Source: Candidatus Latescibacterota bacterium (GTDB lineage Bacteria > Latescibacterota > UBA2968 > UBA8231). From it: a stretch of 64,000 bases of DNA. The DNA lies in contig OZ241867.1 of NCBI GenBank assembly GCA_965203175.1, forward strand, positions 4,544,001-4,608,000. The letters are read 5' to 3'. Each line of letters opens with the position of its first letter. The first letter of the stretch is position 1. Both the position numbers and the translations under genes were made by a program. The notes below the pieces were generated by a model that did not search any database, was not told the origin of the DNA, and was given only the letters and a program-made list of their open reading frames with translations. This document shows, piece after piece, positions 7,419 to 64,000 of the stretch.

Positions 7419-7435
7419 GCAATTTCTCCCAACCC

Positions 7436-9445: not shown

Positions 9446-9518
9446 AACCAGCCTATTTTCACGAAGGGAAACGGGCTTGACGGCTGCAAACCCTGCATTT
9501 AATTTGTGCTTTTCAATT

Positions 9519-9605: not shown

Positions 9606-9725
9606 CTTTTCGCTTCTATTCCCTGACTGATTTAATCTACACGCCTCGTTCTAACCCGCGCAAGGGACTGCCTGCACACGCAGCAGCCCCTACCAAAATT
9701 ATACAACCCGCGAAAGGATGTCCCT

Positions 9726-12549: not shown

Positions 12550-12550
12550 C

Positions 12551-15535: not shown

Positions 15536-15537
15536 GC

Positions 15538-16911: not shown

Positions 16912-16923
16912 GCCATTGAACTT

Positions 16924-17469: not shown

Positions 17470-17470
17470 A

Positions 17471-19287: not shown

Positions 19288-19675
19288 ACAAGCACACGAC
19301 CAAAGCAACTCCGGCTACGAGACGACGGACGCGCAAGTAAAGCCGCTGGCACAGACCGGCGTCTTCCTTACCGTGTTAGTCATCGCTTCCTTTATTGCCA
19401 TGATCGTCTTATTCAGGGGTCTTGCCTATTACCAGGAGCTCTTTGACGATCCAGTTCCGCCGCTCGTCGAGAATCGCATTGCCAGCGACGCACCGAGGCT
19501 ACAGGTGGACCCGCCAAAGCAAAAGTTTGAGTTGGCCCAAAGCGAAGCCGCGATCCTCAACTCCTACGGCTGGATCGACGAACAAGTGAAGGTAGTCCAC
19601 ATTCCCATCGAGCGAGCAATTGATCTGGTGAGCGAGGGCAAAATGCCGCTCATCGCTCCGCCAGCAACACCATGA
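19280..19675 (+). CDS. actG: alternative complex III subunit G-like
   Basis: GYETTD, single TM, PRLQ, LNSYGWIDE...HIPIERAI; position between actF and SCO. Confidence 0.8.
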   Translation: MAEQAHDQSNSGYETTDAQVKPLAQTGVFLTVLVIASFIAMIVLFRGLAYYQELFDDPVPPLVENRIASDAPRLQVDPPKQKFELAQSEAAILNSYGWIDEQVKVVHIPIERAIDLVSEGKMPLIAPPATP

Positions 19676-20511
19676 GCAGACCTACAACGACATTCGCTCG
19701 CAGCGCGATCTTTTCGGCATTAACTCTGCCGCTTTTGCTAGCCGGCCAGACCCGGGCGCAAAGCTATACCCAGCAGCTACAAAAGAGCATCGGCATCGAC
19801 CAAAAATTGGGCGACCAGATTCCCTTGGATCTCGAATTCACCGACTCCAATGGCAAGCGCACTGCGCTGCGCCAATACTTCGGCCAAAAGCCCATCGTAC
19901 TCACCTTGGTGTACTACGAGTGCCCCATGCTCTGCACCCAAGTGCTGAATAGTCTCTTGCGGGCAATGAATGTGCTGAGTTTTGGCATTGGCACGGATTT
20001 CGACGTCTTGACCATCAGCGTCGATCCCGGGGAAACTCCGGAGTTGGCCGCAGCCAAAAAGGCCGAGTACAGCAAAAACTACCGCGGCCGCGATGGTTCT
20101 ACGGGTTGGCATTTTCTCACCGGCGAGGAAGACCAGATCGAGCAACTGGCCTCAGCCGTCGGCTTTCGTTACGAATACGATGAAGATACCGACCAGTACA
20201 TTCACGCTAGCGGCTTGATGGTGCTGACGCCGGACGGCAAACTGGCGCGCTATTTATACGGCATTGACTACCCTCCGCGCGACTTGCGCTGGGGCCTCGT
20301 CGAAGCAGCCGACGGTGCCATCGGCAATCCAGTTGACCAGCTCCTACTGCTCTGCTATAGCTACGACCCAATGACCGGCAAATACGGTCTCTACATCCGC
20401 AATTCTCTGCGCATCGGGGGGTTGATTACTGTGCTCGCTCTCGTTGGTTTTATCATCGCAATGCTCAAGCGGGATCGCCGCAACAACCTGCACCAGCCTC
20501 AGCTCAACTAG
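19672..20511 (+). CDS. SCO family copper chaperone
   Basis: YYECPMLC (CxxxC), WHFLTG, H.SG, C-terminal TM. Confidence 0.93.
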   Translation: MSRPTTTFARSAIFSALTLPLLLAGQTRAQSYTQQLQKSIGIDQKLGDQIPLDLEFTDSNGKRTALRQYFGQKPIVLTLVYYECPMLCTQVLNSLLRAMNVLSFGIGTDFDVLTISVDPGETPELAAAKKAEYSKNYRGRDGSTGWHFLTGEEDQIEQLASAVGFRYEYDEDTDQYIHASGLMVLTPDGKLARYLYGIDYPPRDLRWGLVEAADGAIGNPVDQLLLLCYSYDPMTGKYGLYIRNSLRIGGLITVLALVGFIIAMLKRDRRNNLHQPQLN

Positions 20512-20529
20512 TTCGGAGCCTTGAACCGC

Positions 20530-21465
20530 ATGTCCGACTTTCCACTTTTTCCCGCCCAAGCCTCCACCATCGCCTGGCAAGTAGATGCCCTGTACGCATT
20601 CTTGCTCGTCTTGACTGTGATTTTCTGCCTGCTCGTCTTCGGTATGGTAATCATCTTCGCCATCAAGTACCGCCGCCGCTCTGAAGACGAACAGCCCGAG
20701 CAAACTCACGGCAATCTCGTCCTCGAATTATCTTGGACCATCATCCCACTCTTTTTGGCGCTTTTTGTCTTTTTGCTCGGAGCCGATGTCTTCTTCCGGC
20801 TCCAGCGGCCGCCGTCCGACCCCTTGGAGATTTACGCGGTCGGCAAGCAGTGGATGTGGAAAATCCAACACGAATCGGGCAAGCGAGAAATCAATACTCT
20901 GCACGTACCCAAGGGCCAGCCCGTCCGCCTTACCATGACCTCAGAGGACGTAATCCACGACTTTTTCATCCCAGCCTTCCGCGTCAAAAACGACGTGTTG
21001 CCCGGGCGCTACACGACTCTGTGGTTCGAAGCCACGCAGACAGGCGAGTTCCACTTGTTTTGCGCTGAGTATTGCGGCACCCAGCACGCGGGCATGATCG
21101 GCAAGGTGATCGTCTTAGAGCCAGCGGATTACCACGACTGGCTGATGGGAGCGTCCAGTGGCGAATCCATGGTCGAGGCCGGTGAGCGCCAGTTCCAGCA
21201 ACTCGGCTGCGAGACCTGCCACAAATCCACGGCCACGGGTCGCGGGCCTTCGTTGGTCGGGATTTACGACAAACCGGTGACACTCAGCAACGGGCAAGAA
21301 GTCGTCGTCGATAGCGACTACATCCGCGAGTCCATACTCCAACCCCAGGCCAAAATCGTCGCTGGGTACGAGCCGATTATGCCCATCTTTGAAGGGCAGA
21401 TCAGCGAGCAGTCGCTGTTGCAAATCGCATCCTATATCGAATCCCTGAGTGAGTCCGCAGAGTGA
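20530..21465 (+). CDS. coxB: cytochrome c oxidase subunit II with fused cytochrome c (caa3 type)
   Basis: CuA ligands DVIH...[12 protein letters not shown]; C-terminal CETCH heme motif. Confidence 0.96.
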
Positions 21466-21490
21466 ACATCTCAACGAGGTCATTCAAGCC

Positions 21491-23158
21491 ATGAGCCACG
21501 CAGTCAGCGCCAACGGCGAGCCGAGAAACTATCTCAACGAAACGTATGGGATCAAATCTTGGCTCCTGACCCTAGACCACAAGCGCATCGGTATCCTCTA
21601 CTTGATAACGCTGGCGGTCTTCTTCTTGGTCGGCAGCATGTTCGCCAGCCTCATTCGCTTTGAGTTGATGACGCCCAAAGGCGATTTGGTCGAAGCAGAG
21701 ACCTACAACAAGCTCTTCACCATGCACGGGGTGGTGATGATCTTCTTCTTTCTGATCCCCTCGATCCCGGCGGTGTTGGGCAACTTTCTTATTCCCCTAC
21801 AGATCGGCGCGCGGGACGTGGCCTTCCCCCGCTTAAATCTCCTCAGCTATTACCTCTACGTCGCCGGCGGGGCCTTCGCCGTGCTGGCCATCATTATGGG
21901 GGGCATTGATACGGGTTGGACCTTTTACACGCCTTATAGCAGTACGTACTCCACTTCGTTCGTTTCCCTAGCCTTAGTCGGCGTTTTTGTCAACGGCTTC
22001 TCTTCGATCCTCACCGGGGTCAACTTCATGGTCACCATCCACAAGATGCGGGCCCCAGGTATGACGTGGTTCCGCTTGCCGCTTTTTATTTGGGGGCACT
22101 ACGCGACCAGCTTGATTCAGGTCCTAGGCACCCCGGTGGTGGCCATCACCTTGTTGCTGGTTTGCTTCGAGCGCGCCTTCAAGATCGGCATTTTCGATCC
22201 CAATTACGGCGGTGATCCGGTGCTTTTCCAGCACATGTTTTGGTTTTACTCGCATCCGGCCGTGTACATCATGATCTTGCCGGGCTTTGCCGTCATCAGC
22301 GATGTCATAGCTTGCTTCTCGCGCAAGCGCGTCTTCGGCTATTCCTTTGTGGCTTTTTCCTCGCTGGCCATCGCCGTCCTTGGCTTTCTCGTCTGGGGCC
22401 ACCATTTGTTCGTATCGGGCCAATCCACCTATGCCAGCATGGTTTTTTCCTTCATCACCTTTTTCATCGCCGTACCCACGGCCATCAAAATTTTCAACTG
22501 GGCTTTCACTCTCCACAAAGCCTCGGTTAAGCTAGACTCGCCGATGCTCTACGTGATGGGCTTTATCGGCCTTTTCACCATCGGCGGCCTGACGGGCCTG
22601 TTCCTCTCCACCTTGGGCATAGACGTCCATCTCCACGATACCTACTTCGTGGTTGCCCATTTTCACTATGTCATGGTGGGCGGCATGGTCATGGGGTTCC
22701 TCTGCGGCCTGCATTTTTGGTGGCCTAAAATGACCGGGCGCATGTACTCGGAAGGGGCGGCCAAGCTCGGCGTCATGTTCGTCTTCGCCGGGTTCAACTT
22801 GACCTTCTTCCCGCAATTTATCTTGGGTTACTTGGGAATGCCTCGGCGCTATCACGCCTATCCCGAGGAATGGCAAGCCCTCAACATCATGTCCACGGCG
22901 GGCGCCACTGTCCTCGGCTTGGGCTTCACACTGACCATCGTCTATCTCCTCTGGTCCTTGTTTAAGGGCGAGAAGGCCACCGCCAATCCGTTCCAAGCCA
23001 AGGGCCTTGAATGGGACATCCCCTCGCCGCCCATAGCCCACAATTTTGAAGCCATCCCGATAGTTACCTGGGAAGCCTATCCGTACGGTGAGGAGGAACC
23101 GGCGGAACCGAGTACTGAGGCCGTACCTGAACGCGCTAAGGAGGATGAAGTTGTCTGA
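21491..23158 (+). CDS. coxA: cytochrome c oxidase subunit I (type A2)
   Basis: [24 protein letters not shown] (YS motif), VWGHH, AHFHYV, GMPRRY. Confidence 0.97.
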
Positions 23159-23813
23159 TCACGCACATAGCGCCCACCACCTACACCAGTTCGAGACGGC
23201 GCAGCAGCAATACGAAGCCGCTAGTCTCGGCATGTGGGCGTTCATCATCCAGGAAATCCTGTTCTTCGGGGGGTTGTTCGGTGCCTATACTGTGTACCGC
23301 AACGAATATATTGAAGCCTTTACCGCTGGCTCTAAGCTCCTCAGCATCGGCTGGGGCACCTTCAACACCATCGTGCTGATCGCCAGCAGTCTGACCATGG
23401 CGCTAGCCGTCCGCGCCGCGCAGACCAATGCTGGTCGCAACGCGATTACGGGGTGGCTCGTCGCCACGATCATTCTCGGCTGCGCTTTCTTAGGCGTCAA
23501 GTACATCGAGTACAGCCACAAGTTGCACCAGAACCTCATCCCCGCCGGCAGCATGTTCCAGTGGAACGACCCGGCGGTCACGCTCGGCAACGCCAAAATT
23601 TTCTTCTCGTTTTACTTCGTGATGACCGGGATGCACGCGCTGCACATGGTCGTTGGCGTCGGCATCATGCTGTGGATGATCGCCAAGGTCCGGCGCAACG
23701 AGATCTCGGCTCAGTACTTTACGCCGATTGAAATCAGCGGCCTTTATTGGCACTTCGTCGATATCGTGTGGATTTTCCTCTTCCCGCTGCTCTATCTGAT
23801 TGGACGCCACTAA
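23151..23813 (+). CDS. coxC: cytochrome c oxidase subunit III
   Basis: [33 protein letters not shown]; TTG start 6 nt after AAGGAGG. Confidence 0.95.
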
Positions 23814-24154
23814 TGTCTGAACATCACTCTGAACACCATGTCGTCCCACTCAAGATCTACTTTCTGATCTTCTTCGCCCTGATGATCGGCACGGTAATCA
23901 CGGTGGCTGCCGCCTTCGTCGACATGGGCTTTTTGAATACCCCGGTCGCCCTGATCATCGCTTTAGTAAAGGCATCGCTGGTCATCTTGTTCTTCATGCA
24001 CGTGAAATACAGCCCCAAGCTAGTCGGGCTTTTCGCGGTCGCCGGCTTTTTCTGGCTGTGCATCCTGCTGGCCTTGACCATGCAGGACTACTACACGCGC
24101 GGCTGGGGTCAAGAAGCACCGGTGGAGTTTCTCAAGCAGGGATCTTTCTTCTAA
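23813..24154 (+). CDS. coxD: cytochrome c oxidase subunit IV family
   Basis: Three TMs, IA.VKASLVILFFMHVKY; TAATG overlap. Confidence 0.9.
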   Translation: MSEHHSEHHVVPLKIYFLIFFALMIGTVITVAAAFVDMGFLNTPVALIIALVKASLVILFFMHVKYSPKLVGLFAVAGFFWLCILLALTMQDYYTRGWGQEAPVEFLKQGSFF

Positions 24155-28455: not shown

Positions 28456-30744
28456 TCAATAGGCCAACGCGATAATTTGGGTCGTTTTATGCGTCTGCGC
28501 ATCGCCTTGTACCACAATTCGCAAAATATAGTTGCCCGGCGCGACCAGTTGCCCGGATTCGTCCTGGCCGTCCCAACTCAATGTTATCGGCCCGGCTGTT
28601 TGCTGCTGGTCGTGTAGCACCCGGATTTCCCGTCCGCTCAGGTCGTAGAGTGCCACGTGCAGCAAACGGGGCTGGAGAATATTCAACAGGGCGAACTCTA
28701 TCTGCAGCAAATCGCCGATACCATCGCCGTTGGGGGTCACGAGCGCGGCCGACAACGCAAGTCCGTCAATCAACGCGGGGCCGACCGGTAGCGACACGGC
28801 GATCACTTCACTGGCAACCGCGTCGCTGGCATCACCCACATCCACCCGCTGCCTTATCTGTCGCTCTCTCCGACCACTGGCCAAGAAGGCCTCAAAGGGC
28901 ATCTGTTGGCGATATATGGTGCTGGCGAAGTCAAGCTCGATCAACCCGGCCCGGACGAACGGATTGGCAAAGGTAATGTCCCATCCGCCGTCCACTCGGG
29001 CGACCTCCGCGTTCAATACCTGCCCCCCAGAGCGGATCTCGTCAAGCTCAATGTCTGCTTTTGAACGCATGAGCAACTGATCGAAACCCGTGCTACCGGC
29101 ACCGACATCCCAACCAAGATAATAGGTGAACTCCGTGCGCTGCCCTGGTTCGGCCTGAATCGGGTAGATCTCCGCTCGCGTTGCTGCTGCCAACGGCTCG
29201 GCGTAGCTGAGGACCATCTCGTCGAGGATCGCCCCCTGCATGGGGTCGTCGCTGAGCAAATAGGCCTGCAATTGGACGAAACGCCTCGGCGTTGGCGAGA
29301 GAAAACCCCGATCTGACCGCTCGTACGCCTGACTCCAGATACTCCAATCGTCGCCGGGCGAACGGACCGTATCAATCCTGCCTTTAAAACTCGGTATGAG
29401 CTTGTTGTATTTCCTCTCGGTTACTTCCTTGCCGTTTTTGTCGTGGAAGACATAGGACTCCTGCAACAAGTTGCCCGTCCGCGAACGAATTTCTACGCGG
29501 GCCCCCTCAGGTGTCTCGACCTGCCAACTCAACCCCGTGGCGTTGCGCACCGCCCCCAGATCGTAGATCGGGGATTGCATGATGGTGCCGGCGGGATAGC
29601 CTTCGCCAAAGACCTGGAATTCGGCTGTCGTACCCGTGATGCAACACTGCCTGTTCGGATAGCGCATCCGCAGATAGCGCAGTGGCCGGAGCGAGAACTG
29701 CTCTTCAAAATGGACAATATCGCGCAAATTGCGGGGGTGTTCGGGCAACTCCCCTAGGACCTGCCAGCGCAGCGATCCGTCCGGTGCCAGCGATCCGTCC
29801 GACCCCCAGATGATATACCAAGGGAAGTGGATGGCGTTGCGCCGGGTCCAGCGCCAGTCAACGCTGCTGGGTGCAATGCCAGCCAGATCGCCCAAAATCC
29901 GCACCCGATCCACCCAGTATAGGGCACCCAAATCAAAGGTAAATTCCGTGTCGCCCGGTTGGGAAAACCCCCAGTAGCGCCAACTCGACACAATATCGCC
30001 GTCGATCAGCGCGTTGCTATTGCCCGTTGACTCGTAGCCTTCGGCCCGCGTGCCGATTTCGTTGAGGATATCGACCTGACCGCCGCGTTCCCGCATCCCC
30101 AGCGAGATATTGTCCCCCACGGCCTCTACCTCAATCGAACTAATTCCCGCGCCCACGGTGGGCAAGTCCACTTCAATGCGGATGAATTGCAGTGGCTTAA
30201 GGCCGTATTCGATGACCAACTCCCGCTGCTGGTTAAAGCTGTAGCGGACGCGATCGCTGTAGCGCACAATGCTCGGCAGAGGCAGTCCGGTCGAATCAAA
30301 AAAGCGCTCGCCATTGGACAGCAGAACCTGAAAAAGCTCCAGTGGCGGCCCATCTTCTCTGAGCCGCAAGACCACGCGCCGCGCGGAAACGACGCGGCCC
30401 AGATCGACCTCGACGTACATATTCTCGGGATCATCGCCCCAATCGGGAGCCCAGAAGCTGCTCAAGCTCCCGTCGATTAGGTTACCAGCATCGCCGCTGT
30501 TGGAGCCTGCAGCGCGGATGCCCCCGCCGAAATCTCCAGCATTGGCGACCGCGTCGATATCCCGCCGCACGAATCTGGGACCGGCCTTCCCTCGGCTGAT
30601 TTCGATTGCGTCGCCAGGCCGCTGCCACTCCCTCCAATCCGCGCTGGTCCCAATCCTCAGCTCCTCGCCCGTCGCGGATGAATATACCATACCGCAAAGC
30701 AGCAGGACCCAAAGAGCAAACCCCAACTGGCGTTTATTTTCCAC
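28456..30744 (-). CDS. secreted protein with discoidin-like domains and C-terminal FlgD Ig-like domain
   Basis: Signal peptide; two NLIDG...W..VDLG segments; TPNGDGIGD, YDLSGR, WDGQDESGQLVAPG.YI C-terminus. Confidence 0.85.
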   Translation of the reverse strand: MENKRQLGFALWVLLLCGMVYSSATGEELRIGTSADWREWQRPGDAIEISRGKAGPRFVRRDIDAVANAGDFGGGIRAAGSNSGDAGNLIDGSLSSFWAPDWGDDPENMYVEVDLGRVVSARRVVLRLREDGPPLELFQVLLSNGERFFDSTGLPLPSIVRYSDRVRYSFNQQRELVIEYGLKPLQFIRIEVDLPTVGAGISSIEVEAVGDNISLGMRERGGQVDILNEIGTRAEGYESTGNSNALIDGDIVSSWRYWGFSQPGDTEFTFDLGALYWVDRVRILGDLAGIAPSSVDWRWTRRNAIHFPWYIIWGSDGSLAPDGSLRWQVLGELPEHPRNLRDIVHFEEQFSLRPLRYLRMRYPNRQCCITGTTAEFQVFGEGYPAGTIMQSPIYDLGAVRNATGLSWQVETPEGARVEIRSRTGNLLQESYVFHDKNGKEVTERKYNKLIPSFKGRIDTVRSPGDDWSIWSQAYERSDRGFLSPTPRRFVQLQAYLLSDDPMQGAILDEMVLSYAEPLAAATRAEIYPIQAEPGQRTEFTYYLGWDVGAGSTGFDQLLMRSKADIELDEIRSGGQVLNAEVARVDGGWDITFANPFVRAGLIELDFASTIYRQQMPFEAFLASGRRERQIRQRVDVGDASDAVASEVIAVSLPVGPALIDGLALSAALVTPNGDGIGDLLQIEFALLNILQPRLLHVALYDLSGREIRVLHDQQQTAGPITLSWDGQDESGQLVAPGNYILRIVVQGDAQTHKTTQIIALAY

Positions 30745-35241: not shown

Positions 35242-36846
35242 TCAATTTTCCACCACATGTAGTCGCTGGTTGGCAGCCAAGTCTTCGAGCACTTGCACCC
35301 CCCCGGCCGGCCAGTGAATCTCCAGTCGCTCGATGCGCTTGGCTGTTCCCAAGCCGAACAAGGGATCGCGTTGACTGGTCGAGAGGAAACCCGATCCCGC
35401 CTTTACTTCCCTGAGCTGCCGCCGACCACCGGCCCATAGATACAGTCGGGCGCCGATGCCGTCGCGATTGCTCTGCCGGCCCTCCAGCGCGACCGAGAGA
35501 TAGTTACCTCGAGGACCGTCGTTGCGCAGCAGGGCGAAGCGGCGGCCGTTGTTAACGAGGGCAATGTCCAAGTCGCCATCTTGGTCAATGTCCCCGAAGG
35601 AGGAGCCGCGCACCACGTAGAAGGCGGAGAAAGCCGGGCCGCTCTCAGCGGTCACTTCGCGGAAGACGCCCCTGCCCCCATTGCGAAAAAGCTGTGCCTG
35701 TTGTGCGTAAGTCACCAATTCGTCGTACTGTTCAATGTTGTCGTGGACGTGGCCGTTGCCCACGAACAGGTCGAGGTACCCGTCGTTGTCCGGGTCGAAA
35801 AACCCCGTGCCAAAACCAAGGTAGTTCAGGCTGAGGTCTCCGAGGCCAGCCTTGAAGCTGATCTCAGAGTAAAACGAGCCGTCGTTGCGATACAGCCCGT
35901 TGTTTTCCAACTGATAGTTGGTGACGAACAGGTCGAGGTCGCCGTCTTGGTCTATGTCGCCAGCATCGACGCCCATGCCCGCTTGGCTAGCCCCGTCTGC
36001 GCTCAGCGCGGTTCCGACCAGCAAACCGGTCTCGGCAAAAGCACCGTCGCCTTGGTTGACGTAGTGGAAATTGGGCGTCAAGTCGTTGGCCACGTACAGA
36101 TCCGGGTCGCCGTCCCCATCATAGTCACCAGCTACCGCACCTAACCCATTGCCCTCGCCCGTGATACCCGCTTGGCGGCTGACCTCGGAAAAGACGCCGT
36201 GGCCCTCATTGCGATAGAGAATATCCACAGTGGGCTCAAAGACCCTCGGGTCGCAATAGAAGCGCAGCCCCATGTCCCCTCGTCCACACCAAGGCTGCTC
36301 CCCCAAGACAAAGCGGACGTATTGCGCAGCGAAGAGGTCGAGGTCGCCGTCGAGATCGTAGTCGAATGCAACGGCGCTGGTGGTCCATCCCGCGTGGCCG
36401 AGACCGGCTACGTCCGTCGCATCGACATAGCCGTCTCCTTCGCGCCGGTAGAACTGATCCGGCCCCCACGCCGTCAGGTAGAAATCCGGGTCGCCGTCCC
36501 CATCGTAGTCGGCCGCGGTCACCCCCATGCCATAGGAGGTGCCGGGCGCACCAGCTGCGCCGTCCATCCGCACAAAGACGCTCCCGTCGTTGCGAAAGAG
36601 CTGGTTAGAGGCTGCGCCCCGCCCCCGCTCCATGTCTCCGCTGTTGACCAAGTACAAGTCCCAATCTCCGTCATCGTCGTAGTCGAGAAAGGCACTGCCA
36701 GCACCATTAGTCTCAGGCAGATTCTTCTCGGCAGAAGCCCCGTTGTCGTGGACGAAATCGATGCCTAATTCACGGGCGACCTCGACGAAGTGGCTCTGCC
36801 CGTAGCTAGCTGCCGACAACAGGAGCACGAGAAGCAGAGCACTCAC
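35242..36846 (-). CDS. CRTAC1 family protein (FG-GAP/VCBS repeats + ASPIC/UnbV)
   Basis: Signal peptide; repeated DYDxDGDxDL motifs; SNRDGIGAR, FGLG, I.WPAG..Q. Confidence 0.92.
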   Translation of the reverse strand: MSALLLVLLLSAASYGQSHFVEVARELGIDFVHDNGASAEKNLPETNGAGSAFLDYDDDGDWDLYLVNSGDMERGRGAASNQLFRNDGSVFVRMDGAAGAPGTSYGMGVTAADYDGDGDPDFYLTAWGPDQFYRREGDGYVDATDVAGLGHAGWTTSAVAFDYDLDGDLDLFAAQYVRFVLGEQPWCGRGDMGLRFYCDPRVFEPTVDILYRNEGHGVFSEVSRQAGITGEGNGLGAVAGDYDGDGDPDLYVANDLTPNFHYVNQGDGAFAETGLLVGTALSADGASQAGMGVDAGDIDQDGDLDLFVTNYQLENNGLYRNDGSFYSEISFKAGLGDLSLNYLGFGTGFFDPDNDGYLDLFVGNGHVHDNIEQYDELVTYAQQAQLFRNGGRGVFREVTAESGPAFSAFYVVRGSSFGDIDQDGDLDIALVNNGRRFALLRNDGPRGNYLSVALEGRQSNRDGIGARLYLWAGGRRQLREVKAGSGFLSTSQRDPLFGLGTAKRIERLEIHWPAGGVQVLEDLAANQRLHVVEN

Positions 36847-40905: not shown

Positions 40906-41676
40906 GTGAACGTCATCATCGCGGCAATTTTAGTAGGCGTCCTCTTGGTTTGGGGCGGGTTTTGGGGCCTGCTCCGCATCGCGGACCCCTTCGAGCGCAA
41001 ACACGTGTTAATCCTCGCCGTGTACACTATCGTCGTCGTCGGCAGTGTTATGGGCTTGGTACTCTTTATAAATCACGAGCAGCAAAAGAAGCACCGCGCT
41101 CAGCTAGAGGCGCAAATGGACAAGTTCGACAATCGCCTCTCCGAGCTGAGTACCCGGCTCATTGGCCAGTTAGAGGAAAAAGCCAATCTGACTGCCTCTG
41201 AATTCGAGATCCGCTCCCTCCTGCAAAACGAAAAGGATCACCATAAGCGCACCCGTAACCAACTAGCGGCCCAAATCGATCGCACCAACGCGCTGGAAAA
41301 CAAAATGGAAACCGAGCGCAAAGAGCGGCTGCGCTACCAATCCGATACCGACCTCAAGCTCGAAGAACGCTTTCGGCAGGAAGATCGACGTTACCAAAAA
41401 CTCGTCGATACCCACAAGCGCTCCTTGGCGAGCGTGCAGGCCGAACTCGCCCCCCTCAACAGCGCGTTGACCCGCCTGCAAGAGCAAACCGCGACCTTAC
41501 AGCGCAATCAGCAAGCGATCATAGACAAAATTGCCGCCGCCCGCGAGACTCAAACGCTCTCGGCCCAAACGCTCGACGCGCTTGCCCGCAGCCTGAGCGC
41601 CCTGTCCAATGACTTCCACCAAACCATGACACAAGTTGACAGCCTGTATAATAGAACATCCCTAACGCCGCCTTAA
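40906..41676 (+). CDS. membrane-anchored coiled-coil protein
   Basis: Two N-terminal TMs, then about 190 aa of heptad-rich helix. Confidence 0.8.
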   Translation: MNVIIAAILVGVLLVWGGFWGLLRIADPFERKHVLILAVYTIVVVGSVMGLVLFINHEQQKKHRAQLEAQMDKFDNRLSELSTRLIGQLEEKANLTASEFEIRSLLQNEKDHHKRTRNQLAAQIDRTNALENKMETERKERLRYQSDTDLKLEERFRQEDRRYQKLVDTHKRSLASVQAELAPLNSALTRLQEQTATLQRNQQAIIDKIAAARETQTLSAQTLDALARSLSALSNDFHQTMTQVDSLYNRTSLTPP

Positions 41677-41686: not shown

Positions 41687-42505
41687 ATGAAACGCATTCT
41701 CATCCCTTTCATCGCCCTATTCCTTGCCTCCTGCACCAATAAGGAGCAGGAGATGCTCCTCCTCCAATTACAAAGCGACATGGGCCGCGCCAACGCCGCT
41801 ATTGACTCGCTGACGTACTCGCTCGACGATTCCAACCGCTTGCTCGACGACATGCGGGCACAAGTTGACAGCACCCAACAGGTTAACGACAAGCTGCTCA
41901 AAAACGTGCAAAAGCTCAATAAAGAACTGCGGCACTGGAGTAAACTGGCCACCGAATACAAGCAGAGCAATGAGCGATTAAAGCTCGAAATTGAGCAGCT
42001 AAGAAGGGAAAAGCAAGCGGACCGCTACACTATTTCCCAGCTGCGCGCCGAGACCGACCGCCTCAATGGCGAACTGCTGGAAACCCATAGTAGCATCCGT
42101 CGCCAGAGCGATCACATCCGCCGCTTAGAGCAAGAGTTGGCCCAGACCAAGGCCGAACTGGACGAGGCCAAGAAAGCCGCGCAAAACGCAGTGTACCTCT
42201 ATGCTGCCAACGAGACGCAGCTCGTAGAGCAGGGCTATCTCAAAACCTACCGCCCCTTTGGCAGCGGATTTCGCAAGCAGTACGAGTTGGTAAAACAGAT
42301 CCGTCGCGACAACCCGGGTACCCAAGTCGCGCCCATTGGCCAAACCATCACGCTACCAGGAGAAGTCGAGGCCCTCGTCGATCACTACGGTAAGCTCAGG
42401 AAGGGGGACGACTACGAAATGACACTTGGCGAAGCTGGAGTGCAGGTCGCGTTCCTCAACGAGTTGGCCGGTGGCACAGGCGTCTTGGCGATACTTAAGG
42501 AATAA
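41687..42505 (+). CDS. coiled-coil lipoprotein (Cbp1-like C-terminal domain, tentative)
   Basis: TAAGGAG RBS; lipobox FLASC; about 150-aa coiled coil; NAVYLYAANETQLVEQGYL. Confidence 0.8.
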   Translation: MKRILIPFIALFLASCTNKEQEMLLLQLQSDMGRANAAIDSLTYSLDDSNRLLDDMRAQVDSTQQVNDKLLKNVQKLNKELRHWSKLATEYKQSNERLKLEIEQLRREKQADRYTISQLRAETDRLNGELLETHSSIRRQSDHIRRLEQELAQTKAELDEAKKAAQNAVYLYAANETQLVEQGYLKTYRPFGSGFRKQYELVKQIRRDNPGTQVAPIGQTITLPGEVEALVDHYGKLRKGDDYEMTLGEAGVQVAFLNELAGGTGVLAILKE

Positions 42506-42515: not shown

Positions 42516-42935
42516 TCACCAAGTATGGACGTAAACCGCCGAGCGCACCTTCTCCCCGGCTTGGTCGGTCGAGAGCAGTGAGTCGGCAAACGACGCGTGT
42601 TTGGCCAGCCGCTCGCGGCTACCCCCTTTGAGAAACAAGTGCAAACTAGCTTCGGGCTCGGCAGCGAGACGGCGTACCATCCGGCGAAACTCCCACTCGC
42701 TCAAAGGGCTGTCGATGGTGTAGCCATCGCGCGATAGCCCCACGCTCGCGCTCGTGTACAGTACGACCCGATCCCCAGGCTGTGGGTCGTGGCGATGTAC
42801 CCGCCAGACCGGTTGCGTCACGTTGAGAATCATAATACCCAAGCTCAACATCAGCATCATAATGCCCAAGAAGAGTTCCTTGCTAATATCGTGCTCTTCG
42901 AGCTCGGCGGCTTGGCGTTTGAGATAGCGGCTCAC
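42516..42935 (-). CDS. ExbD/TolR-like single-TM protein (divergent)
   Basis: Short basic/acidic N-terminus, one TM, small periplasmic domain; GTGA overlap with the MotA/TolQ/ExbB gene. Confidence 0.65.
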   Translation of the reverse strand: MSRYLKRQAAELEEHDISKELFLGIMMLMLSLGIMILNVTQPVWRVHRHDPQPGDRVVLYTSASVGLSRDGYTIDSPLSEWEFRRMVRRLAAEPEASLHLFLKGGSRERLAKHASFADSLLSTDQAGEKVRSAVYVHTW

Positions 42936-43717
42936 AATTTTCTATTCCTCTCTCTGACCCAAGCGTCCTCCTGCCGGGAGAGCCGCTGGACTAAGTAGTC
43001 GGCGATCTTGCGCAACGGCAAGTAGGCTAAGAGGCCGACGAGCGTGGTTTTAAAGGCCAAAACCAAGCCCTCGGCCATGGCGCTGAGTGCCTTAAAGGTC
43101 TGGGTCGCCTCGTCGATCTGACTCAATTCCTGCGCGGTCAGCAGTATGCCGCAGACCGTACCCAAGTAGCCGTACAGAGGGATCCTTGTCAGATCGCGGC
43201 GCACGTGCGTCAAAGGGTCGCCGAGAAAACCCACGAGTTCGTCCACCAACTCCTCGTCTCTGCTCTTGAGGTCGCTGTAGCTGGCGGATTGGCGCTGCAA
43301 TTCTGCTAGCTGTTCCATTCTCTGGCGGCCCAAGGTGTTGGAGCCGGGACCGCCGCGCCGCGCCCAAGCTCGCTCCTCGCGACGGAGGTGCAAGCTAATG
43401 TGTGCCAAGCTCAACAGATGACCTCCAGCCGACCAAGCGATCAGCACGTATGAGAAGCGGCCAATCCACGCAAAGGGGCTGGCTAGCTGCGGGTTTACGA
43501 AGAGGTAATAAGCGGGCAGTGCCCCGACGATCAACCCGGTCAGCAAGCCTATACAGCTAGCGAGGTACTGCAGGCGTGGCAAGTTCAGAGAGTACGCTTC
43601 GTCGTGCCGGCGCATGCGCCGGGCTCGTCGTAAGTGCAAACAGCTAACGGTGACGCCGCCGGCCAGCACCAACAGGATGCTGCTGACTAATACTAATTCG
43701 TCGTTCAAGAGGTCCAT
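42932..43717 (-). CDS. MotA/TolQ/ExbB proton channel family protein
   Basis: IPLYGYLGTVCGI and GLVLAFKTTLVGL match the ExbB/TolQ TM hairpin; ATG 43717. Confidence 0.85.
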   Translation of the reverse strand: MDLLNDELVLVSSILLVLAGGVTVSCLHLRRARRMRRHDEAYSLNLPRLQYLASCIGLLTGLIVGALPAYYLFVNPQLASPFAWIGRFSYVLIAWSAGGHLLSLAHISLHLRREERAWARRGGPGSNTLGRQRMEQLAELQRQSASYSDLKSRDEELVDELVGFLGDPLTHVRRDLTRIPLYGYLGTVCGILLTAQELSQIDEATQTFKALSAMAEGLVLAFKTTLVGLLAYLPLRKIADYLVQRLSRQEDAWVRERNRKL

Positions 43718-44913
43718 CCCTTCGCACTCAAGAGCTTCCACCATTGCCGACTCACCACTCCCAGATAAAACAGCAGGCCAGTCGCAATCCCCCACAGTTC
43801 CCACGGCGCGTTGCGGCCGATGTGGATGCCCCGAGCGGACGATTCCTGTCCGCCCATTCCCGTAGCGCGGCCTTCGCCTTTGGCTGAACCGCGTGCAGCT
43901 GGAGGTACGTAATCTCGGCGGCGATCTGCTTCTCCGCGCGCAGTGCTGGCCACAGCGCGCTGCGGCACGACGTGGCTCACGCCTTTAAGAGCTTGTTTTT
44001 TGGGGAAAACCAACTCGCGTTGCGCAGCGGGCAGTGCCTCGGTCCAAGCGAGTAGTTTTTTCGCCGCGTCTATGCTTTCGATTTCGGCCAATTTGTCCGC
44101 TTTCCCGAGGGAAAAAGCCAGCCGTCCGCGGACAGATCCCTGATAGAGCACGTCTGGTGCTGCGCTGCGACGCGCTTGGAGTTTTTGCGCTAATTCGTCG
44201 CGTTGCTTTTGCAAATGCACCAGACGGCTGACGACCATGTGAGTCTCCATAGGCTGGTGCTGCGCCGCTCCGGCCGCGTCCGCACCGGTGAGCGGCCGTC
44301 GCCGTGCAGCTCGGGCCAATTGCGCGGCGTCAAAGCGGGCCTCTAATTCGACTTCGCCAAACAGCGTCATCCCCCAGATGACTTCGGCTCCGGGAATGTC
44401 GGGCAAGCTGTGGTTGTAAAAACGCGGCTCGGCCCGCTGGCCATCCACCCACCAGCGGCCATCGCCAGTAGCCAGCACCTTGCGCAATCGACCGCGACCA
44501 TCTTGCAAGTACAAACCAGCCATAAAGCCACTCTCGACTCGGTCGGTGTCCCAGCAATGGGCGCGTAGGATATTGGAGCTGAGCAGATACACAACGGGAA
44601 TTTCGACTCGGATTGGGGTCAAGCGCGTCTCCCCGATCCGGTGCCCATTGAGGAACAGCTCTGCTTCATCGTCAGCCCAGAAAATCAGTACCAGTTTGGA
44701 ATTGGCTGGCAATAGCCGGCTGTTTTCTTTGCGCTTTGCCAATTCGCGCAGCTTATCCCCCCCATAGAGGCGGACTAAGGTGTCGATGCTGGCGGACACT
44801 TGGTTGTACTGTTGTCTGAGTGCCACCACGTCATCGGCCGCAGCGGCTGTGCTCCAACCGACTCCGCACGCCGTCCAAGCCAACCAACGCATCCATCGCG
44901 CACAGCCGCTCAT
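43705..44913 (-). CDS. secreted, C-terminally anchored hypothetical protein with jelly-roll-like domain
   Basis: Signal peptide ending STAAAA; WADDEAELFLNGHRIG; C-terminal TM with basic tail; ATGA overlap with the SDR stop. Confidence 0.75.
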   Translation of the reverse strand: MSGCARWMRWLAWTACGVGWSTAAAADDVVALRQQYNQVSASIDTLVRLYGGDKLRELAKRKENSRLLPANSKLVLIFWADDEAELFLNGHRIGETRLTPIRVEIPVVYLLSSNILRAHCWDTDRVESGFMAGLYLQDGRGRLRKVLATGDGRWWVDGQRAEPRFYNHSLPDIPGAEVIWGMTLFGEVELEARFDAAQLARAARRRPLTGADAAGAAQHQPMETHMVVSRLVHLQKQRDELAQKLQARRSAAPDVLYQGSVRGRLAFSLGKADKLAEIESIDAAKKLLAWTEALPAAQRELVFPKKQALKGVSHVVPQRAVASTARGEADRRRDYVPPAARGSAKGEGRATGMGGQESSARGIHIGRNAPWELWGIATGLLFYLGVVSRQWWKLLSAKGWTS

Positions 44914-58682: not shown

Positions 58683-61600
58683 TTAAAAAACCAGACGCCC
58701 ACGCAACAGGAGTCCATGCGAGGCACCGGCCATGCGCTGCCAGCGAGAACTCTCTAGGCTCACTGACATCGCCGAATCCACTTCAAAGCGCGTACCTAAG
58801 CGCAACTGCATGCGCTCTGGCGCTTGCGTCATCCCGCTGTATACAGTGTATACTCCCCGACCGCCAAGTGCGGCTAAACCGTAGCCGACCTCGGCTCTAA
58901 GCTGGCCTTGCGCGTTCGCAACACCCCGGTCCGCTATCTCGGCTACGCTGCGCTCCCACAGCGTCAGGCTATTCGCCTGCGTACCGTAGGTCGGCATCAC
59001 CCGCAACGACAACCCTCGGCCACCGGTGCCTGCCGAGCGCTGGAGCAGCAGATGCGCACCCCATTCTTTGTACTCGGCCTCGTCGTTGCCGTCACTTACC
59101 AGGCTCCGCCCCATAGCTTCCAGCGTGAAGCCACCTCCCTCATAGCGCAGACCACCGCCAACTTCTACGCCGGATCCGGTCAGTCCGTCGCCGCCATCTT
59201 GGCGCAGAGCAACCTCTAACTCGGGTGTCACCTGCCCATCCATACCCGCTTCGTAAGCATGGGAAGCTTTGAGTGCCAGCCTCAAGCGGTTAGCACTCAC
59301 CGTCTCTTCGGCGATCCGGTTTCCTTGTCCATTCTCGACTGCTCCACCCTCGACTTCAACCTGTGCTACAGTAGCAGCAGCCTTGATCCGCAACTGAGTC
59401 GGACCACCGGAGAGCAAGTCTCCGCTAGCCCCTACACTTCCAGTCCGCAGCGACGTATCGCTCGACTGCTGGCCTACGGTTCCCTGTTGGTCGTCAATAT
59501 CAAGGTTGCCGCGTCCTAAGCCCGCCGTCAACCATACCCCCAACCGCCCTGGCGAGAACCCGACGTATGGATGCAGGCTCAACATGCGAGTCTCATAGGT
59601 ACCGTCGACTCGCTCTTCACCGAGCAACGGAGCGGTATAATCGAACGATCCTTGGGCCCACGACAGCGCCAAACCGGTTAGCATTTCGGCACCTGGCCGG
59701 GCGTCCAAACCAATCTGAGCACGGCTTAGGTTGCCTTCCCAATCCAGCGAACCATCGTCGCTAGACATTTGGCCGTAGTCTCCTCGGCCCCAGAATGTAG
59801 GACTGCCGGGACAAATAACGCATCCTCTACCGAAACCGAACGGCACCGCGAAGGACGAGCCATTCACAACCTGTGACATATTAACCGGGCGGTTCTCAAA
59901 GATTCGGCCGGATTGAATCAGGTCGTGGAGGGTAGACTCAGCGGCAAAGCTAAAAGACCTATTCACATCGCCGGCTCTGTCCATATGCTCAAGGCGATTT
60001 TCGATGGCGCGATTCGTTCCATCGGCGATAGCCAAGGCGTACTTGGACAAGATCTGTTTGTTGAGCTCCGAAAAACGGTCCGTAGCCGATTCTTCCACTC
60101 GGACCTCGAAGCTGAGGATAGCTGCGTCCTCAGCAGTCATATTGTCATCGGAGTCGTGGGCCGTATACGTCAACGTATACGTTCCGACCTCTGTCGGTGT
60201 GCCCGAAAGCATCGGCGACATGGGGTTGGGGTCAAACGTCAGACCCGGCGGCACGTTATCTAAGGTATACGTCAACTCGCCGAAATCGACCTCGCCATCC
60301 GGATTCAGCGAAAGCAAGTTGCCGCCCGAAGCCAAAGGCAACACCAAGTCTTCAATCGCCTCACCATCTATGTACGTCTGGTTGGCCACATCTCCGCTAA
60401 AGCTAGGCGCACCATCTACCGTTATGTGAAAGGTCAACTCAGCCGAATCGCCATCTTGGTCTTCCACCTGGTAGACCAAACGATACACGCCAGTGTGCGT
60501 CGGCGTGCCCGAAAGCGTCCGGGCTGCAGCGTCGAAGCTCAGACCCGGCACATTCATATCTAAACTATATGTCAAGTCGCCGTTGCCTCCCGCAGCCGCA
60601 GGGAATTCCCACGAATCCATCGCCTCATTCTGACGCAAGATTCGATCCTCAATGACCGCGTCAAAAAAGGTAGGATTGCCGTCGACTGTCAGGAAGAAGC
60701 TCAACTCAGCCGAATCGCCATCTTGGTCTTCCACCCGAAACGTCAACTCATATCCCTCGGCGGGATGCGACACATGAAGCTCCGGCGTACCCGAAATCGT
60801 CCGCGACGTAGCATCAAACGCCAGACCCGGCGGCAAATTCTCCTCACTCAAGCTATAGGTCAACTCGCCGTTGCCGCCCAAAGCCGCAGGCAACTCCAAC
60901 GGGGCCATTTCCTCCCCTTCAGGAACCCACTGATTCGTAATGGCTCCCTCAAAGAAGGGCATACCATTCACCGAAACCGTGAAGGTCAACGGGGCTGGCT
61001 CTTCGCCATCGACATCCGCCACCCGATACGTCAACGCATATGCCTCGGGAGAATATGACACATTAGGCGACAACTCACCCGAAATCGTCCGAGCCGTGGG
61101 ATTAAACGCCAGCCCCGGAGGCAGCTCCCCATCCAAGAAATATGTCAACGCTACATTCCCACCGACCGCCTCTGGCAACTCCAAGCTCACCGCCTCGCCC
61201 ACCGTGTACTGCTGATCTTCTACGACCTGATCGCCGAAGCTAGGTATGCCATTCACCGCAATCGTGAAGCGCAATGTCACAGCATCGCCATCGACATCCG
61301 TCACCCGATACGTCAACCCATAGCCCTCGGCAAGATACAAGTAATCGGCTGGCAGCGTACCTGAAATCGTCCGCGCCGCGCCATCAAACGACAGATCCGG
61401 CGGCAACTCCCCTTCCAGGGTATACGTCAACGCGCCATTCCCACCGACCGCTTCCGGCAAACCTAAGCTCACCTCATTGCCCGCCTCATACAACTGGTCG
61501 TCTACAACCTGAGCGTGGAAGCTGGGCATACCATGTATCACAATCGTGAATTCCAAAACGGCCGGCGCATCGCCATCCTGATCCGTCACCTGATACGTCA

Positions 61601-64000
61601 ACGCATACCCCTCGCTCTCAGCAGCATACGTCGCATCCGCCGACAGCGTACCTGAAATCGTCCGCGTCGCGCTATCATAGCTCAGACCCTCCGGCAACTC
61701 CCCAGCCAACTCATACGTCACCTCGCCGTTGCCACCCGAAGCCGAAGGCAACACCCAAGGATCGATCGTCTGCCCTTCGGCAAAGGTGACCTGACTTGAC
61801 ACGGTTTCGTCAAAGCGAGGGATACCATCCACCCGAATCGTGAACACCAACGGGGCCGGCTCTTCGCCATCGACATCCGCCACCCGATACGTCACCGTAT
61901 ATCCGTCAAAGGTATACCACGCAAACTCCGGCGGCGTACCCGAAATCGTCCGAGTCCCCGGATCAAACGACAGCCCCGCAGGCAACTCCCCATCCAAGCG
62001 ATACGTCCTCGCCACATTCCCACCTTCCGCCTCCGGCAACTCCAAGCTCACCGCCTCGCCCGCCGTATACGGCTGATCGTCCTGCTCCTGGACGAAGCTG
62101 GGGATGCCATTCACCCGAATCGAGAAGGTCAACGTCACAGTATCGCCATCCACATCCGTCACCCGATACGTGAACCCATAGGACTCATCATACGTCACAT
62201 CCGTCGGCGGCGTACCTGAAATCGTCCGCGCCACGCCATCAAACGAAAGACCCGCAGGCAACTCCCCTTCCAACGTATACGTCAAACCGTTATTCCCACC
62301 GACCGCTTCCGGCAAACCTAAGCTCACCTCATTGCCCGCCTCATACAACTGGTCGTCTACAACCTGAGCGTGGAAGCTGGGCATACCATGTATCACAATC
62401 GTGAATTCCAAAACGGCCGGCGCATCGCCATCCTGATCCGTCACCTGATACGTCAACGCATACCCCTCGCTCTCAGCAGCATACGTCGCATCCGCCGACA
62501 GCGTACCTGAAATCGTCCGCGTCGCGCTATCATAGCTCAGACCCTCCGGCAACTCCCCAGCCAACTCATACGTCACCTCGCCGTTGCCACCCGAAGCCGA
62601 AGGCAACACCCAAGGATCGATCGTCTGCCCTTCGGCAAAGGTGACCTGACTTGACACGGTTTCGTCAAAGCGAGGGATACCATCCACCCGAATCGTGAAC
62701 ACCAACGGGGCCGGCTCTTCGCCATCGACATCCGCCACCCGATACGTCACCGTATATCCGTCAAAGGTATACCACGCAAACTCCGGCGGCGTACCCGAAA
62801 TCGTCCGAGTCCCCGGATCAAACGACAGCCCCGCAGGCAACTCCCCATCCAAGCGATACGTCCTCGCCACATTCCCACCTTCCGCCTCCGGCAACTCCAA
62901 GCTCACCGCCTCGCCCGCCGTATACGGCTGATCGTCCTGCTCCTGGACGAAGCTGGGGATGCCATTCACCCGAATCGAGAAGGTCAACGTCACAGTATCG
63001 CCATCCACATCCGTCACCCGATACGTGAACCCATAGGACTCATCATACGTCACATCCGTCGGCGGCGTACCTGAAATCGTCCGCGCCACGCCATCAAACG
63101 AAAGACCCGCAGGCAACTCCCCTTCCAACGTATACGTCAAACCGTTATTCCCACCGACCGCTTCCGGCAAACCTAAGCTCACCTCATTGCCCGCCTCATA
63201 CAACTGGTCGTCTACAACCTGAGCGTGGAAGCTGGGCATACCATGCACCACGATCGTGAATTCCAAAACGGCCGGCGCATCGCCATCCTGATCCGTCACC
63301 TGATACGTCAACGCATACCCCTCGCTCTCAGCAGCATACGTCGCATCCGCCGACAGCGTACCTGAAATCGTCCGCGTCGCGCTATCATAGCTCAGACCCT
63401 CCGGCAACTCCCCAGCCAACTCATACGTCACCTCGCCGTTGCCACCCGAAGCCGAGGGCAACACCCAAGGATCGATCGTCTGCCCTTCGGCAAAAGTGAC
63501 TTGACTCGACACGGCTTCGTCAAAGCGAGGGATACCATCCACCCGAATCGTGAACACCAACGGGGCCGGCTCTTCGCCATCGACATCCGCCACCCGATAC
63601 GTCACCGTATACCCGTCAAAGGTATACCACGCAAACTCCGGCGGCGTACCCGAAATCGTCCGAGTCCCCGGATCAAACGACAGCCCCGCAGGCAACTCCC
63701 CATCCAAGCGATACGTCCTCGCCACATTCCCACCTTCCGCCTCCGGCAACTCCAAGCTCACCGCCTCGCCCGCCGTATACGGCTGGTCGTCCTGCTCCCG
63801 GACGAAGCTGGGGATGCCATTCACCCGAATCGAGAAGGTCAACGTCACAGTATCGCCATCCACATCCGTCACCCGATACGTGAACCCATAGGACTCATCA
63901 TACGTCACATCCGTCGGCGGCGTACCTGAAATCGTCCGCGCCACGCCATCAAACGAAAGACCCGCAGGCAACTCCCCTTCCAACGTATACGTCAAACCGT
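58683..64000 (-). CDS. giant putative-Ig (He_PIG/cadherin-like) repeat autotransporter (5' end outside window)
   Basis: Many ~95-aa units with LPxGLSFD...TISGT and DxDGD; C-terminal beta-barrel-type sequence ending RGRLVF; frame open to the window edge. Confidence 0.9.
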   Translation of the reverse strand, partial: GLTYTLEGELPAGLSFDGVARTISGTPPTDVTYDESYGFTYRVTDVDGDTVTLTFSIRVNGIPSFVREQDDQPYTAGEAVSLELPEAEGGNVARTYRLDGELPAGLSFDPGTRTISGTPPEFAWYTFDGYTVTYRVADVDGEEPAPLVFTIRVDGIPRFDEAVSSQVTFAEGQTIDPWVLPSASGGNGEVTYELAGELPEGLSYDSATRTISGTLSADATYAAESEGYALTYQVTDQDGDAPAVLEFTIVVHGMPSFHAQVVDDQLYEAGNEVSLGLPEAVGGNNGLTYTLEGELPAGLSFDGVARTISGTPPTDVTYDESYGFTYRVTDVDGDTVTLTFSIRVNGIPSFVQEQDDQPYTAGEAVSLELPEAEGGNVARTYRLDGELPAGLSFDPGTRTISGTPPEFAWYTFDGYTVTYRVADVDGEEPAPLVFTIRVDGIPRFDETVSSQVTFAEGQTIDPWVLPSASGGNGEVTYELAGELPEGLSYDSATRTISGTLSADATYAAESEGYALTYQVTDQDGDAPAVLEFTIVIHGMPSFHAQVVDDQLYEAGNEVSLGLPEAVGGNNGLTYTLEGELPAGLSFDGVARTISGTPPTDVTYDESYGFTYRVTDVDGDTVTLTFSIRVNGIPSFVQEQDDQPYTAGEAVSLELPEAEGGNVARTYRLDGELPAGLSFDPGTRTISGTPPEFAWYTFDGYTVTYRVADVDGEEPAPLVFTIRVDGIPRFDETVSSQVTFAEGQTIDPWVLPSASGGNGEVTYELAGELPEGLSYDSATRTISGTLSADATYAAESEGYALTYQVTDQDGDAPAVLEFTIVIHGMPSFHAQVVDDQLYEAGNEVSLGLPEAVGGNGALTYTLEGELPPDLSFDGAARTISGTLPADYLYLAEGYGLTYRVTDVDGDAVTLRFTIAVNGIPSFGDQVVEDQQYTVGEAVSLELPEAVGGNVALTYFLDGELPPGLAFNPTARTISGELSPNVSYSPEAYALTYRVADVDGEEPAPLTFTVSVNGMPFFEGAITNQWVPEGEEMAPLELPAALGGNGELTYSLSEENLPPGLAFDATSRTISGTPELHVSHPAEGYELTFRVEDQDGDSAELSFFLTVDGNPTFFDAVIEDRILRQNEAMDSWEFPAAAGGNGDLTYSLDMNVPGLSFDAAARTLSGTPTHTGVYRLVYQVEDQDGDSAELTFHITVDGAPSFSGDVANQTYIDGEAIEDLVLPLASGGNLLSLNPDGEVDFGELTYTLDNVPPGLTFDPNPMSPMLSGTPTEVGTYTLTYTAHDSDDNMTAEDAAILSFEVRVEESATDRFSELNKQILSKYALAIADGTNRAIENRLEHMDRAGDVNRSFSFAAESTLHDLIQSGRIFENRPVNMSQVVNGSSFAVPFGFGRGCVICPGSPTFWGRGDYGQMSSDDGSLDWEGNLSRAQIGLDARPGAEMLTGLALSWAQGSFDYTAPLLGEERVDGTYETRMLSLHPYVGFSPGRLGVWLTAGLGRGNLDIDDQQGTVGQQSSDTSLRTGSVGASGDLLSGGPTQLRIKAAATVAQVEVEGGAVENGQGNRIAEETVSANRLRLALKASHAYEAGMDGQVTPELEVALRQDGGDGLTGSGVEVGGGLRYEGGGFTLEAMGRSLVSDGNDEAEYKEWGAHLLLQRSAGTGGRGLSLRVMPTYGTQANSLTLWERSVAEIADRGVANAQGQLRAEVGYGLAALGGRGVYTVYSGMTQAPERMQLRLGTRFEVDSAMSVSLESSRWQRMAGASHGLLLRGRLVF
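61437..64000. repeat. 855-bp tandem repeat, three near-identical copies in window
   Basis: GTCAAACCGT ends at 62290, 63145 and 64000; antisense ORFs recur at 61840, 62695 and 63550. Confidence 0.95.

Follow-up and report, generated by a model that had tools for sequence, protein, structure and literature searches.

A 64,000-nt stretch of contig OZ241867.1 (positions 4,544,001-4,608,000; assembly GCA_965203175.1, Candidatus Latescibacterota bacterium, UBA2968; UBA8231), referred to here as the window, contains a candidate ion-driven motor module of three genes. The host genome is a single 6.58-Mb contig, a metagenome-assembled genome with 6.5% contamination, and the sequencing runs that contain the window DNA are for the most part sponge metagenomes. 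As a preliminary description of this DNA had stated, the three genes overlap; the list of open reading frames (ORFs) places them on the minus strand as A402, MotA-like and S139 (Table 1). The S139 start and the MotA-like stop overlap by 4 nt, the A402 stop falls within the 5' end of the MotA-like ORF, and the A402 ATG overlaps the stop of an upstream SDR gene.

The full open frame of MotA-like has 290 codons. Relatives, however, carry TAG stops in the stretch matching its first 29 codons, and among 110 database homologues, of which 106 match PF01618, most are ~245-275 aa long. We therefore placed the start near 43717, which gives a protein of ~261 aa and revises the start taken previously; the first 29 codons are probably non-coding.

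Table 1. The three genes of the module and the two neighbouring coiled-coil genes, with positions in the window.
Feature	Position	Strand	Product and remarks
A402	43705-44913	minus	402 aa from ATG; candidate driven partner
MotA-like (MotA/TolQ/ExbB-family A subunit)	42932-43717, open frame up to 43804	minus	~261 aa; PF01618; five predicted transmembrane segments
S139 (B-subunit-like)	42516-42935	minus	139 aa; GTG start
CC2	41687-42505	plus	lipoprotein-like coiled-coil protein; convergent neighbour, possible accessory
CC1	40906-41676	plus	two N-terminal transmembrane segments and a coiled coil; upstream of CC2; possible accessory

Conservation and distribution of the gene trio

The trio is contiguous in 15/15 loci compared, two of which are the same contig. 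Within the Latescibacterota class concerned we distinguish four families by the labels f1, f2, f3 and f4, the window's own family being f1-type. A profile of S139 matched 107 of the 168 genomes of the phylum (f1, 57/75; f2, 28/31; f4, 21/22) and none of the 39 genomes in the other eleven families, always at one place per genome, bar one split match. A profile of A402 matched 111 of the same 168 genomes (f1, 58/75; f2, 29/31; f4, 22/22; f3, 1/3). In all 51 genomes with large contigs whose coordinates were compared (by eye), A402 and S139 lie on one contig at a distance of 0.8-1.6 kb, and in three fragmentary assemblies (G088, G096 and G119) the two matches fall on separate contigs. Mismatches in the presence of A402 and S139 come from fragmentary assemblies, with G030 (96% complete) as the sole exception. 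Thus, the trio is single-copy and confined to f1, f2 and f4, and A402 alone also occurs in f3. The clade that bears the module consists of mostly sponge-associated, uncultured Latescibacterota. The split S139 homologue (G106:C24:28291-29038), in which matches to residues 2-51 and 45-139 lie ~300 bp apart, may reflect an insertion or a frameshift.

Metatranscriptome contigs from four runs in three studies map to parts of all three genes. One such contig spans the S139/MotA-like junction (42830-43058), and another spans the MotA-like start together with the end of A402 (43417-43752). Because these are assembled contigs, and because DNA can occur in such libraries, they give only a weak hint that the trio is expressed, and the stretches left uncovered carry no meaning. 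A promoter and terminator scan of the module was uninformative, yielding one weak hairpin just 3' of the S139 stop and no sigma-70-like site.

Sequence and predicted structure of the three proteins

The 290-aa MotA-like ORF matched PF01618 over residues 209-282 with 36.4 bits (cut-off 22.9; E = 5.2e-9), and its top NCBIfam matches were ExbB and TolQ models, far under their cut-offs. When a hidden Markov model (HMM) of the MotA-like family was run on E. coli proteins, TolQ reached 18.6 bits and ExbB 10.7 bits, and MotA obtained no score. The ZorA models of PADLOC matched the PF01618 core at E values of 0.007-0.014 only. In an hhalign comparison of a 25-member MotA-like profile with the ExbB paralogues of the same genome, residues 86-249 aligned collinearly with ExbB residues 25-198 (E = 1e-4, probability 58%). 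By hydropathy, MotA-like has five segments, three N-terminal and two C-terminal, whereas ExbB and TolQ of E. coli have one N-terminal and two C-terminal; the three N-terminal segments noted previously are thus retained. It follows from the collinear alignment that segment 3 corresponds to the first transmembrane (TM) helix of ExbB, with two extra TM segments before it. By these comparisons MotA-like is nearer to ExbB and TolQ than to MotA, but very divergent. In a small tree of stators, an analysis that the preliminary description had proposed, the family forms a long branch separate from every reference stator. A closer placement was rejected, as no sister group was resolved and long-branch attraction was flagged.

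S139 has a single hydrophobic segment, at residues 21-39. It matched nothing in Pfam, NCBIfam or PADLOC at E ≤ 1, so that, as described before, it contains no OmpA-like peptidoglycan-binding domain. Its AlphaFold2 (AF2) model, with a predicted local distance difference test score (pLDDT) of 80, shows a long N-terminal helix followed by a β-β-β-α-β-α-β domain. The best match in Foldseek was TolR of E. coli (5by4; prob 0.98, E = 0.035), and the next was the periplasmic dimer of ExbD (8pek; prob 0.95, E = 0.055). The VIA aligner likewise placed TolR 5by4 first of 48,161 chains (Z = 7.2, root-mean-square deviation 3.8, 90 aligned residues), and a second TolR structure, 2jwk, reached Z = 5.5. These scores are moderate, and the assignment of the modeled periplasmic domain to the TolR/ExbD fold draws its weight from the agreement of two aligners on one family. 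In a language-model search, the cluster of the protein itself came first and one named ‘Biopolymer transporter ExbD family protein’ (0.91) second; we take the latter as a lead only. The idea of a strongly divergent ExbB/ExbD-type pair is therefore upheld by the PF01618 match above cut-off on one side and by TolR as the best match of the S139 model on the other.

The legend of a figure in a review (PMC12905483) terms ExbD Asp25 and ExbB Thr148 and Thr181 essential. When MotA-like sequences were merged with ExbB and TolQ by MAFFT profile alignment, the columns of E. coli ExbB Thr148 and Thr181 held Thr in the window's protein and in seven further family members, and the column of Glu176 held Leu in the family. 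S139 was likewise aligned with ExbD and TolR of E. coli and with nine paralogues from its own genome, and there the canonical aspartate (ExbD Asp25, TolR Asp23) shares its column with Gly24. Glu20, which the preliminary description had put in place of the essential TM aspartate, instead lies four residues upstream of that column, in the column of ExbD Thr21. The conservation expected of Glu20 was nonetheless found: across 15/15 sequences from three families, H15, D16, S18, K19, E20, residues 21-30 (Gly24 included), N38 and Q41-V46 are invariant. Among 46 locus translations, which include that of the window itself and several from a single genome, the sole variation in H15-L30 is Ile or Val at position 17. 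Invariant positions make up 41% of S139, 15% of A402 and 16.5% of MotA-like, in alignments that use different sequence sets, and class-level identity is 58-64% for S139 against ~48-51% and 39-43% for the other two proteins. On both counts S139 is the most conserved protein of the trio. Among the papers listed by a search on ExbD paralogues and the conserved aspartate, no abstract describes an ExbD-like protein with this residue pattern.

A402 gave no HMM match in Pfam for any part of the chain and nothing in a PDB profile search, and none of its 264 homologues carries a Pfam domain. By eye, its N-terminus reads as a Sec signal peptide. The AF2 model (pLDDT 73) begins with a long N-terminal helix, followed by a β-sandwich at residues 73-195 (pLDDT >90), further helices at 196-247 and 277-302, disordered stretches at 253-274, 307-329 and 340-368, and a terminal helix at 371-397. 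A402 is thus predicted to be a type-I membrane protein with a C-terminal TM helix (371-397). The anatomy given in the preliminary description, with a coiled coil, a jelly-roll-like domain, a low-complexity linker and a C-terminal TM segment, agrees with the stalk helix, confident β-sandwich, disordered linker and C-terminal helix of this model.

Structural comparison of the sandwich (~67-220) gave Z = 8.6 over 107 aligned residues with the CBM67 region of a Streptomyces rhamnosidase (3w5n), Z = 8.6 with a Pleurotus lectin (6kbj), Z = 7.0-7.5 with GH78 N-terminal domains and Z = 6.6 with a Ca-dependent CBM (2xhh). Foldseek agreed weakly (prob 0.97 but E ~0.03-0.05), and an atlas search gave weak leads to Bac_rhamnosid_N clusters (0.76-0.78). 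These fold matches suggest a CBM67/GH78-N-like, and so lectin-like, domain. Invariant acidic and aromatic clusters of the sandwich are found at W79-A84, N89, W121-D124 and E127-G133, and the linker holds the invariant residues L309-K310-G311, R331, Y335 and P338.

A proposed motor for A402 and the readings that compete with it

ExbBD, TolQR, MotAB and ZorAB are 5:2 ion motors. GldLM and PorLM, which serve gliding and type IX secretion in the FCB superphylum, are 5:2-type motors as well, but their key carboxylate is a Glu, not an Asp; in GldLM it is carried by the pentameric subunit, and the partner is the long periplasmic GldM dimer. We consider it an even prospect that MotA-like and S139 form a lineage-specific, derived motor of the Ton/Tol 5:2 type that acts on A402. 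What the analysis shows is the three genes and how they are conserved, their predicted folds and the pattern of residues; from these we infer the following arrangement. MotA-like and S139 would form an inner-membrane, ExbBD/TolQR-type ion-driven motor, presumably with five A subunits around two B subunits. Its ion-binding carboxylate would have shifted, such that Gly replaces the canonical TM aspartate and the invariant Glu20, next to Lys19, lies closer to the cytoplasm by one helical turn, where it would face the retained threonine ring of the A subunit. A402, anchored in the same membrane by its C-terminal helix, would be driven by this motor. Moving away from the membrane, its disordered linker, which bears a short conserved motif, would be followed by a helical stalk and, at the far end, a lectin-like β-sandwich, and the sandwich may bind an envelope glycan, either peptidoglycan or an outer-layer polysaccharide. 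The gene overlaps of a few nucleotides, the contiguity of the trio in every locus compared, the adjacency of A402 and S139 in 51/51 genomes and the single copy together supply an operon logic that favors a motor working on A402.

The module resembles ExbBD and TolQR in several respects. It has a PF01618 A subunit that keeps the Thr148 and Thr181 columns, and a small B subunit with one N-terminal TM segment, a periplasmic domain of predicted TolR/ExbD fold and no OmpA domain. The genes lie side by side and overlap, and the operon also encodes a third protein, periplasmic and anchored in the membrane. In contrast to ExbBD and TolQR, there are five TM segments rather than three in the A subunit, with Leu in the Glu176 column. 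S139 has Gly24 for the essential Asp with an invariant Glu four residues earlier and is unrecognizable by any sequence profile, and neither TonB nor TolA is related to the product of the third gene. S139 differs from MotB and PomB in lacking an OmpA-like peptidoglycan-binding domain and in having, within its 139 aa, a TolR-like domain. Unlike Zorya ZorAB, the module comes with no ZorB match and no Zorya effector family among the window ORFs; a PADLOC search of the five module-region proteins found no ZorB and nothing beyond weak ZorA matches and coiled-coil noise. Our module searches gave no sequence or fold match to GldL or GldM.

Passages of PMC12204202 define TonB and TolA by an N-terminal TM helix with an SHLS motif and a C-terminal domain of the TonB_C type. 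A402 shares with them its order from the membrane (TM anchor, disordered linker with a short motif, extended region, distal globular domain) and the position of its gene directly beside the motor genes. It differs from them in its C-terminal anchor and cleavable-looking N-terminal signal, in having neither an SHLS/His motif nor a TonB_C domain, and in its CBM67/GH78-N-like distal β-sandwich. There is precedent for such a departure, since section 8 of PMC12204202 describes motor genes paired with non-TonB transducers that carry vWA domains. There too, an ExbBD/TolQR-type motor goes with a membrane-tethered periplasmic protein that is not TonB and has no assigned function. According to the same section, however, those transducers have N-terminal TM helices (with SHLS, or with an Asp-bearing pore helix) and vWA domains, whereas the module has a C-terminal anchor, a lectin-like domain and a motor without the Asp. 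Excerpts of the literature on stator diversity, Latescibacteria ExbB and ExbD paralogues gave no account of the module, in keeping with its earlier presentation as undescribed. The term ‘Latescibacter’ is absent from the main text of PMC12204202 and PMC12505986, whose supplements may list further motor-associated families.

Several results weigh against a motor that drives A402. First, S139 has no sequence-level link to ExbD: a profile search of the PDB came back empty, nine ExbD paralogues from the same genome reached a probability of 0.1% in hhalign, and a phmmer search of 1.84 billion representatives returned nine clusters, all of them its own family or fragments of it. Second, the structural scores of S139 are middling, with a Foldseek E of 0.035 and a Z of 7.2 that is typical of the best match at chance level. 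Third, the residue columns of both S139 and MotA-like rest on MAFFT profile merges, which carry no statistical support. Fourth, as the canonical Asp and the equivalent of ExbB Glu176 are both lost, ion conduction is not assured. Fifth, the membrane helix of A402 (371-397) contains no His, and so no SHLS-like His, and the polarity of the chain is opposite to that of TonB. Finally, G030 retains A402, but the motor pair was not found there; A402 may therefore not need the motor, or the loss may be recent. A complex prediction with two copies of the S139 periplasmic domain (45-139) and the A402 linker (250-370) scored 0.01 against a mark of 0.32; with the fold of the partner uncertain, it speaks neither for nor against binding.

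The fourth of these points raises the question of whether the pair still works as a motor. It could have descended from ExbBD and become degenerate, neither conducting nor rotating, and serve A402 as a static scaffold or sensor. Gly in the Asp column and Leu in the Glu176 column would fit such a history, as would the very long branch of the MotA-like family, apart from the reference stators, and the drift of S139 past sequence recognition. We nevertheless regard a degenerate pair as unlikely: the invariant D16, S18, K19, E20, N38 and Q41 and the kept Thr columns resemble a maintained polar pathway, and nothing else in the module is as conserved as the TM segment of S139.

Alternatively, the motor may be real but A402 not its output, in which case the pair would energize TonB or another protein encoded elsewhere, and A402 would merely be a co-transcribed, periplasmic glycan-binding protein. 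The sole PF01618, ExbD, TonB_C or Plug match inside the window is the MotA-like gene, and a Pfam search of all 55 long window ORFs and the antiporter found, apart from that PF01618 domain, no Ton, Tol, OmpA, flagellar or Zorya family. Elsewhere in the genome, we found six canonical PF01618 (ExbB/TolQ) genes, eleven canonical ExbD-type matches with three weaker ones within long ORFs, four TonB_C matches and 32 Plug-domain matches. The absence of TonB, TolA and receptor genes noted earlier thus holds for the window but not for the genome, and other clients for the motor may be at hand. A402 has none of the defining features of TonB or TolA, and it persists without the pair in G030. In that genome (locus L054, G030:C1:331000-344000, region 5591-9685), the position next to an intact A402 homologue where the motor pair would be expected holds a minus-strand ORF (6904-7404) that resembles, by eye, a transposase of the IS200/IS605 type, with homologues of CC2 and CC1 beyond it. 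Searches of the G030 genome gave no match to MotA-like or S139. Against this account, the trio keeps a strict order and adjacency over three families, A402 ends within the start region of a motor gene, and six canonical ExbB/TolQ sets are already available to the genome's TonB proteins. We think it quite improbable that A402 is a bystander.

Returning to a motor that drives A402, its most specific form is one that we put forward tentatively and with clearly less than even confidence. Here, an ExbBD-derived 5:2 motor, with the carboxylate moved by one turn (Asp to Gly, Glu at i-4) and the Glu176 equivalent lost, would drive a C-anchored, lectin-like transducer of reverse polarity that grips a glycan. 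This would be a third independent kind of periplasmic force transduction, to which the coiled-coil pair may be the trans-envelope counterpart. Arguments about the mechanism of Ton/Tol/Mot-type 5:2 motors rely largely on a single invariant Asp and a ring of threonines. A conserved family that keeps the threonines, with the carboxylate as a Glu one turn lower, would therefore be a natural test of how fixed the ion path is. If A402 is indeed driven, it would add a new transducer architecture, with a C-terminal anchor and a lectin-like head, to those of TonB, TolA and the vWA proteins, and would widen the range of envelope tasks performed by 5:2 motors. As the module marks a mostly sponge-associated clade of Latescibacterota, its envelope-glycan biology may also bear on symbiosis.

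Neighboring genes and the rest of the genome

CC1 and CC2 are convergent (tail to tail) with the trio and hence not co-transcribed with it. Both adjoin the module in f1, f3 and f4. CC2 has a Cys after its signal sequence, a coiled coil and a C-terminal globular part; Pfam and NCBIfam searches gave coiled-coil noise only, and a PDB search gave noise only. In four f2 genomes the CC2 homologue lies away from the module, and no CC1 was found beside CC2 in these four loci. In one of them, G029, CC2 is ~0.9 Mb from the module and next to an ORF that, by eye, reads like a TolC-type outer-membrane efflux protein. The synteny predicted for the partners of the motor pair therefore holds for A402, in all 15 loci and 51 genomes, and for the coiled-coil genes fails in f2.

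The SDR gene adjoins the trio in 9/15 loci and a Ca2+/Na+ antiporter gene in 6/15, in f1-type loci only; both are absent from 5/5 f2 and f4 loci. The antiporter had been taken as a hint of an ion other than the proton, but given its absence from f2 and f4 it is uninformative about the coupling ion, and the hint falls away. A further reading would have the motor work CC1 and CC2 as an envelope-spanning rod system, powered by Na+ or Ca2+ instead of protons. The two genes do adjoin the module in three families, and A402 in G030, and their products, the one membrane-anchored and the other lipoprotein-like, might suit such a role. We consider this reading very unlikely, given that the genes are convergent and not co-transcribed with the trio, that CC2 in G029 lies far off beside the TolC-like gene, with no CC1 beside CC2 in the f2 loci, that the antiporter is missing from all five f2 and f4 loci compared, and that there is no residue evidence for Na+.

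Two observations concern the canonical ExbB and ExbD genes of the host genome, outside the window. Two ExbB-ExbD-ExbD clusters, at ~5,538,211-5,539,409 and 6,172,542-6,173,740 (G000:C1), have identical scores and lie exactly 634,331 bp apart, which indicates either a large exact duplication or an assembly artefact. Separately, in two tandem pairs of canonical ExbD genes (G000:C1 2,806,433-2,806,852 and 6,529,749-6,530,177), the copies exbd5 and exbd6 have Asn in the Asp column and the neighboring copy keeps the Asp. This suggests that the tandem ExbDs form heterodimeric B subunits with a single carboxylate.

Elsewhere in the window, two secreted-looking proteins, one with F5/8 type C (galactose-binding-like) and FlgD-Ig domains (28456-30744) and one of the FG-GAP/ASPIC-UnbV type (35242-36846), show no link to the module in other genomes, as far as these were examined. 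A respiratory cluster at 11893-24154 encodes a multihaem cytochrome c, alternative complex III (Fer4, NrfD, ActD), SCO1 and cytochrome c oxidase subunits II, I, III and IV. Finally, a very large surface protein (at least 1,770 aa) is encoded on the minus strand at 58683-63995, in an ORF that reaches the window edge; it combines 11 He_PIG Ig-like repeats with an autotransporter beta-domain.

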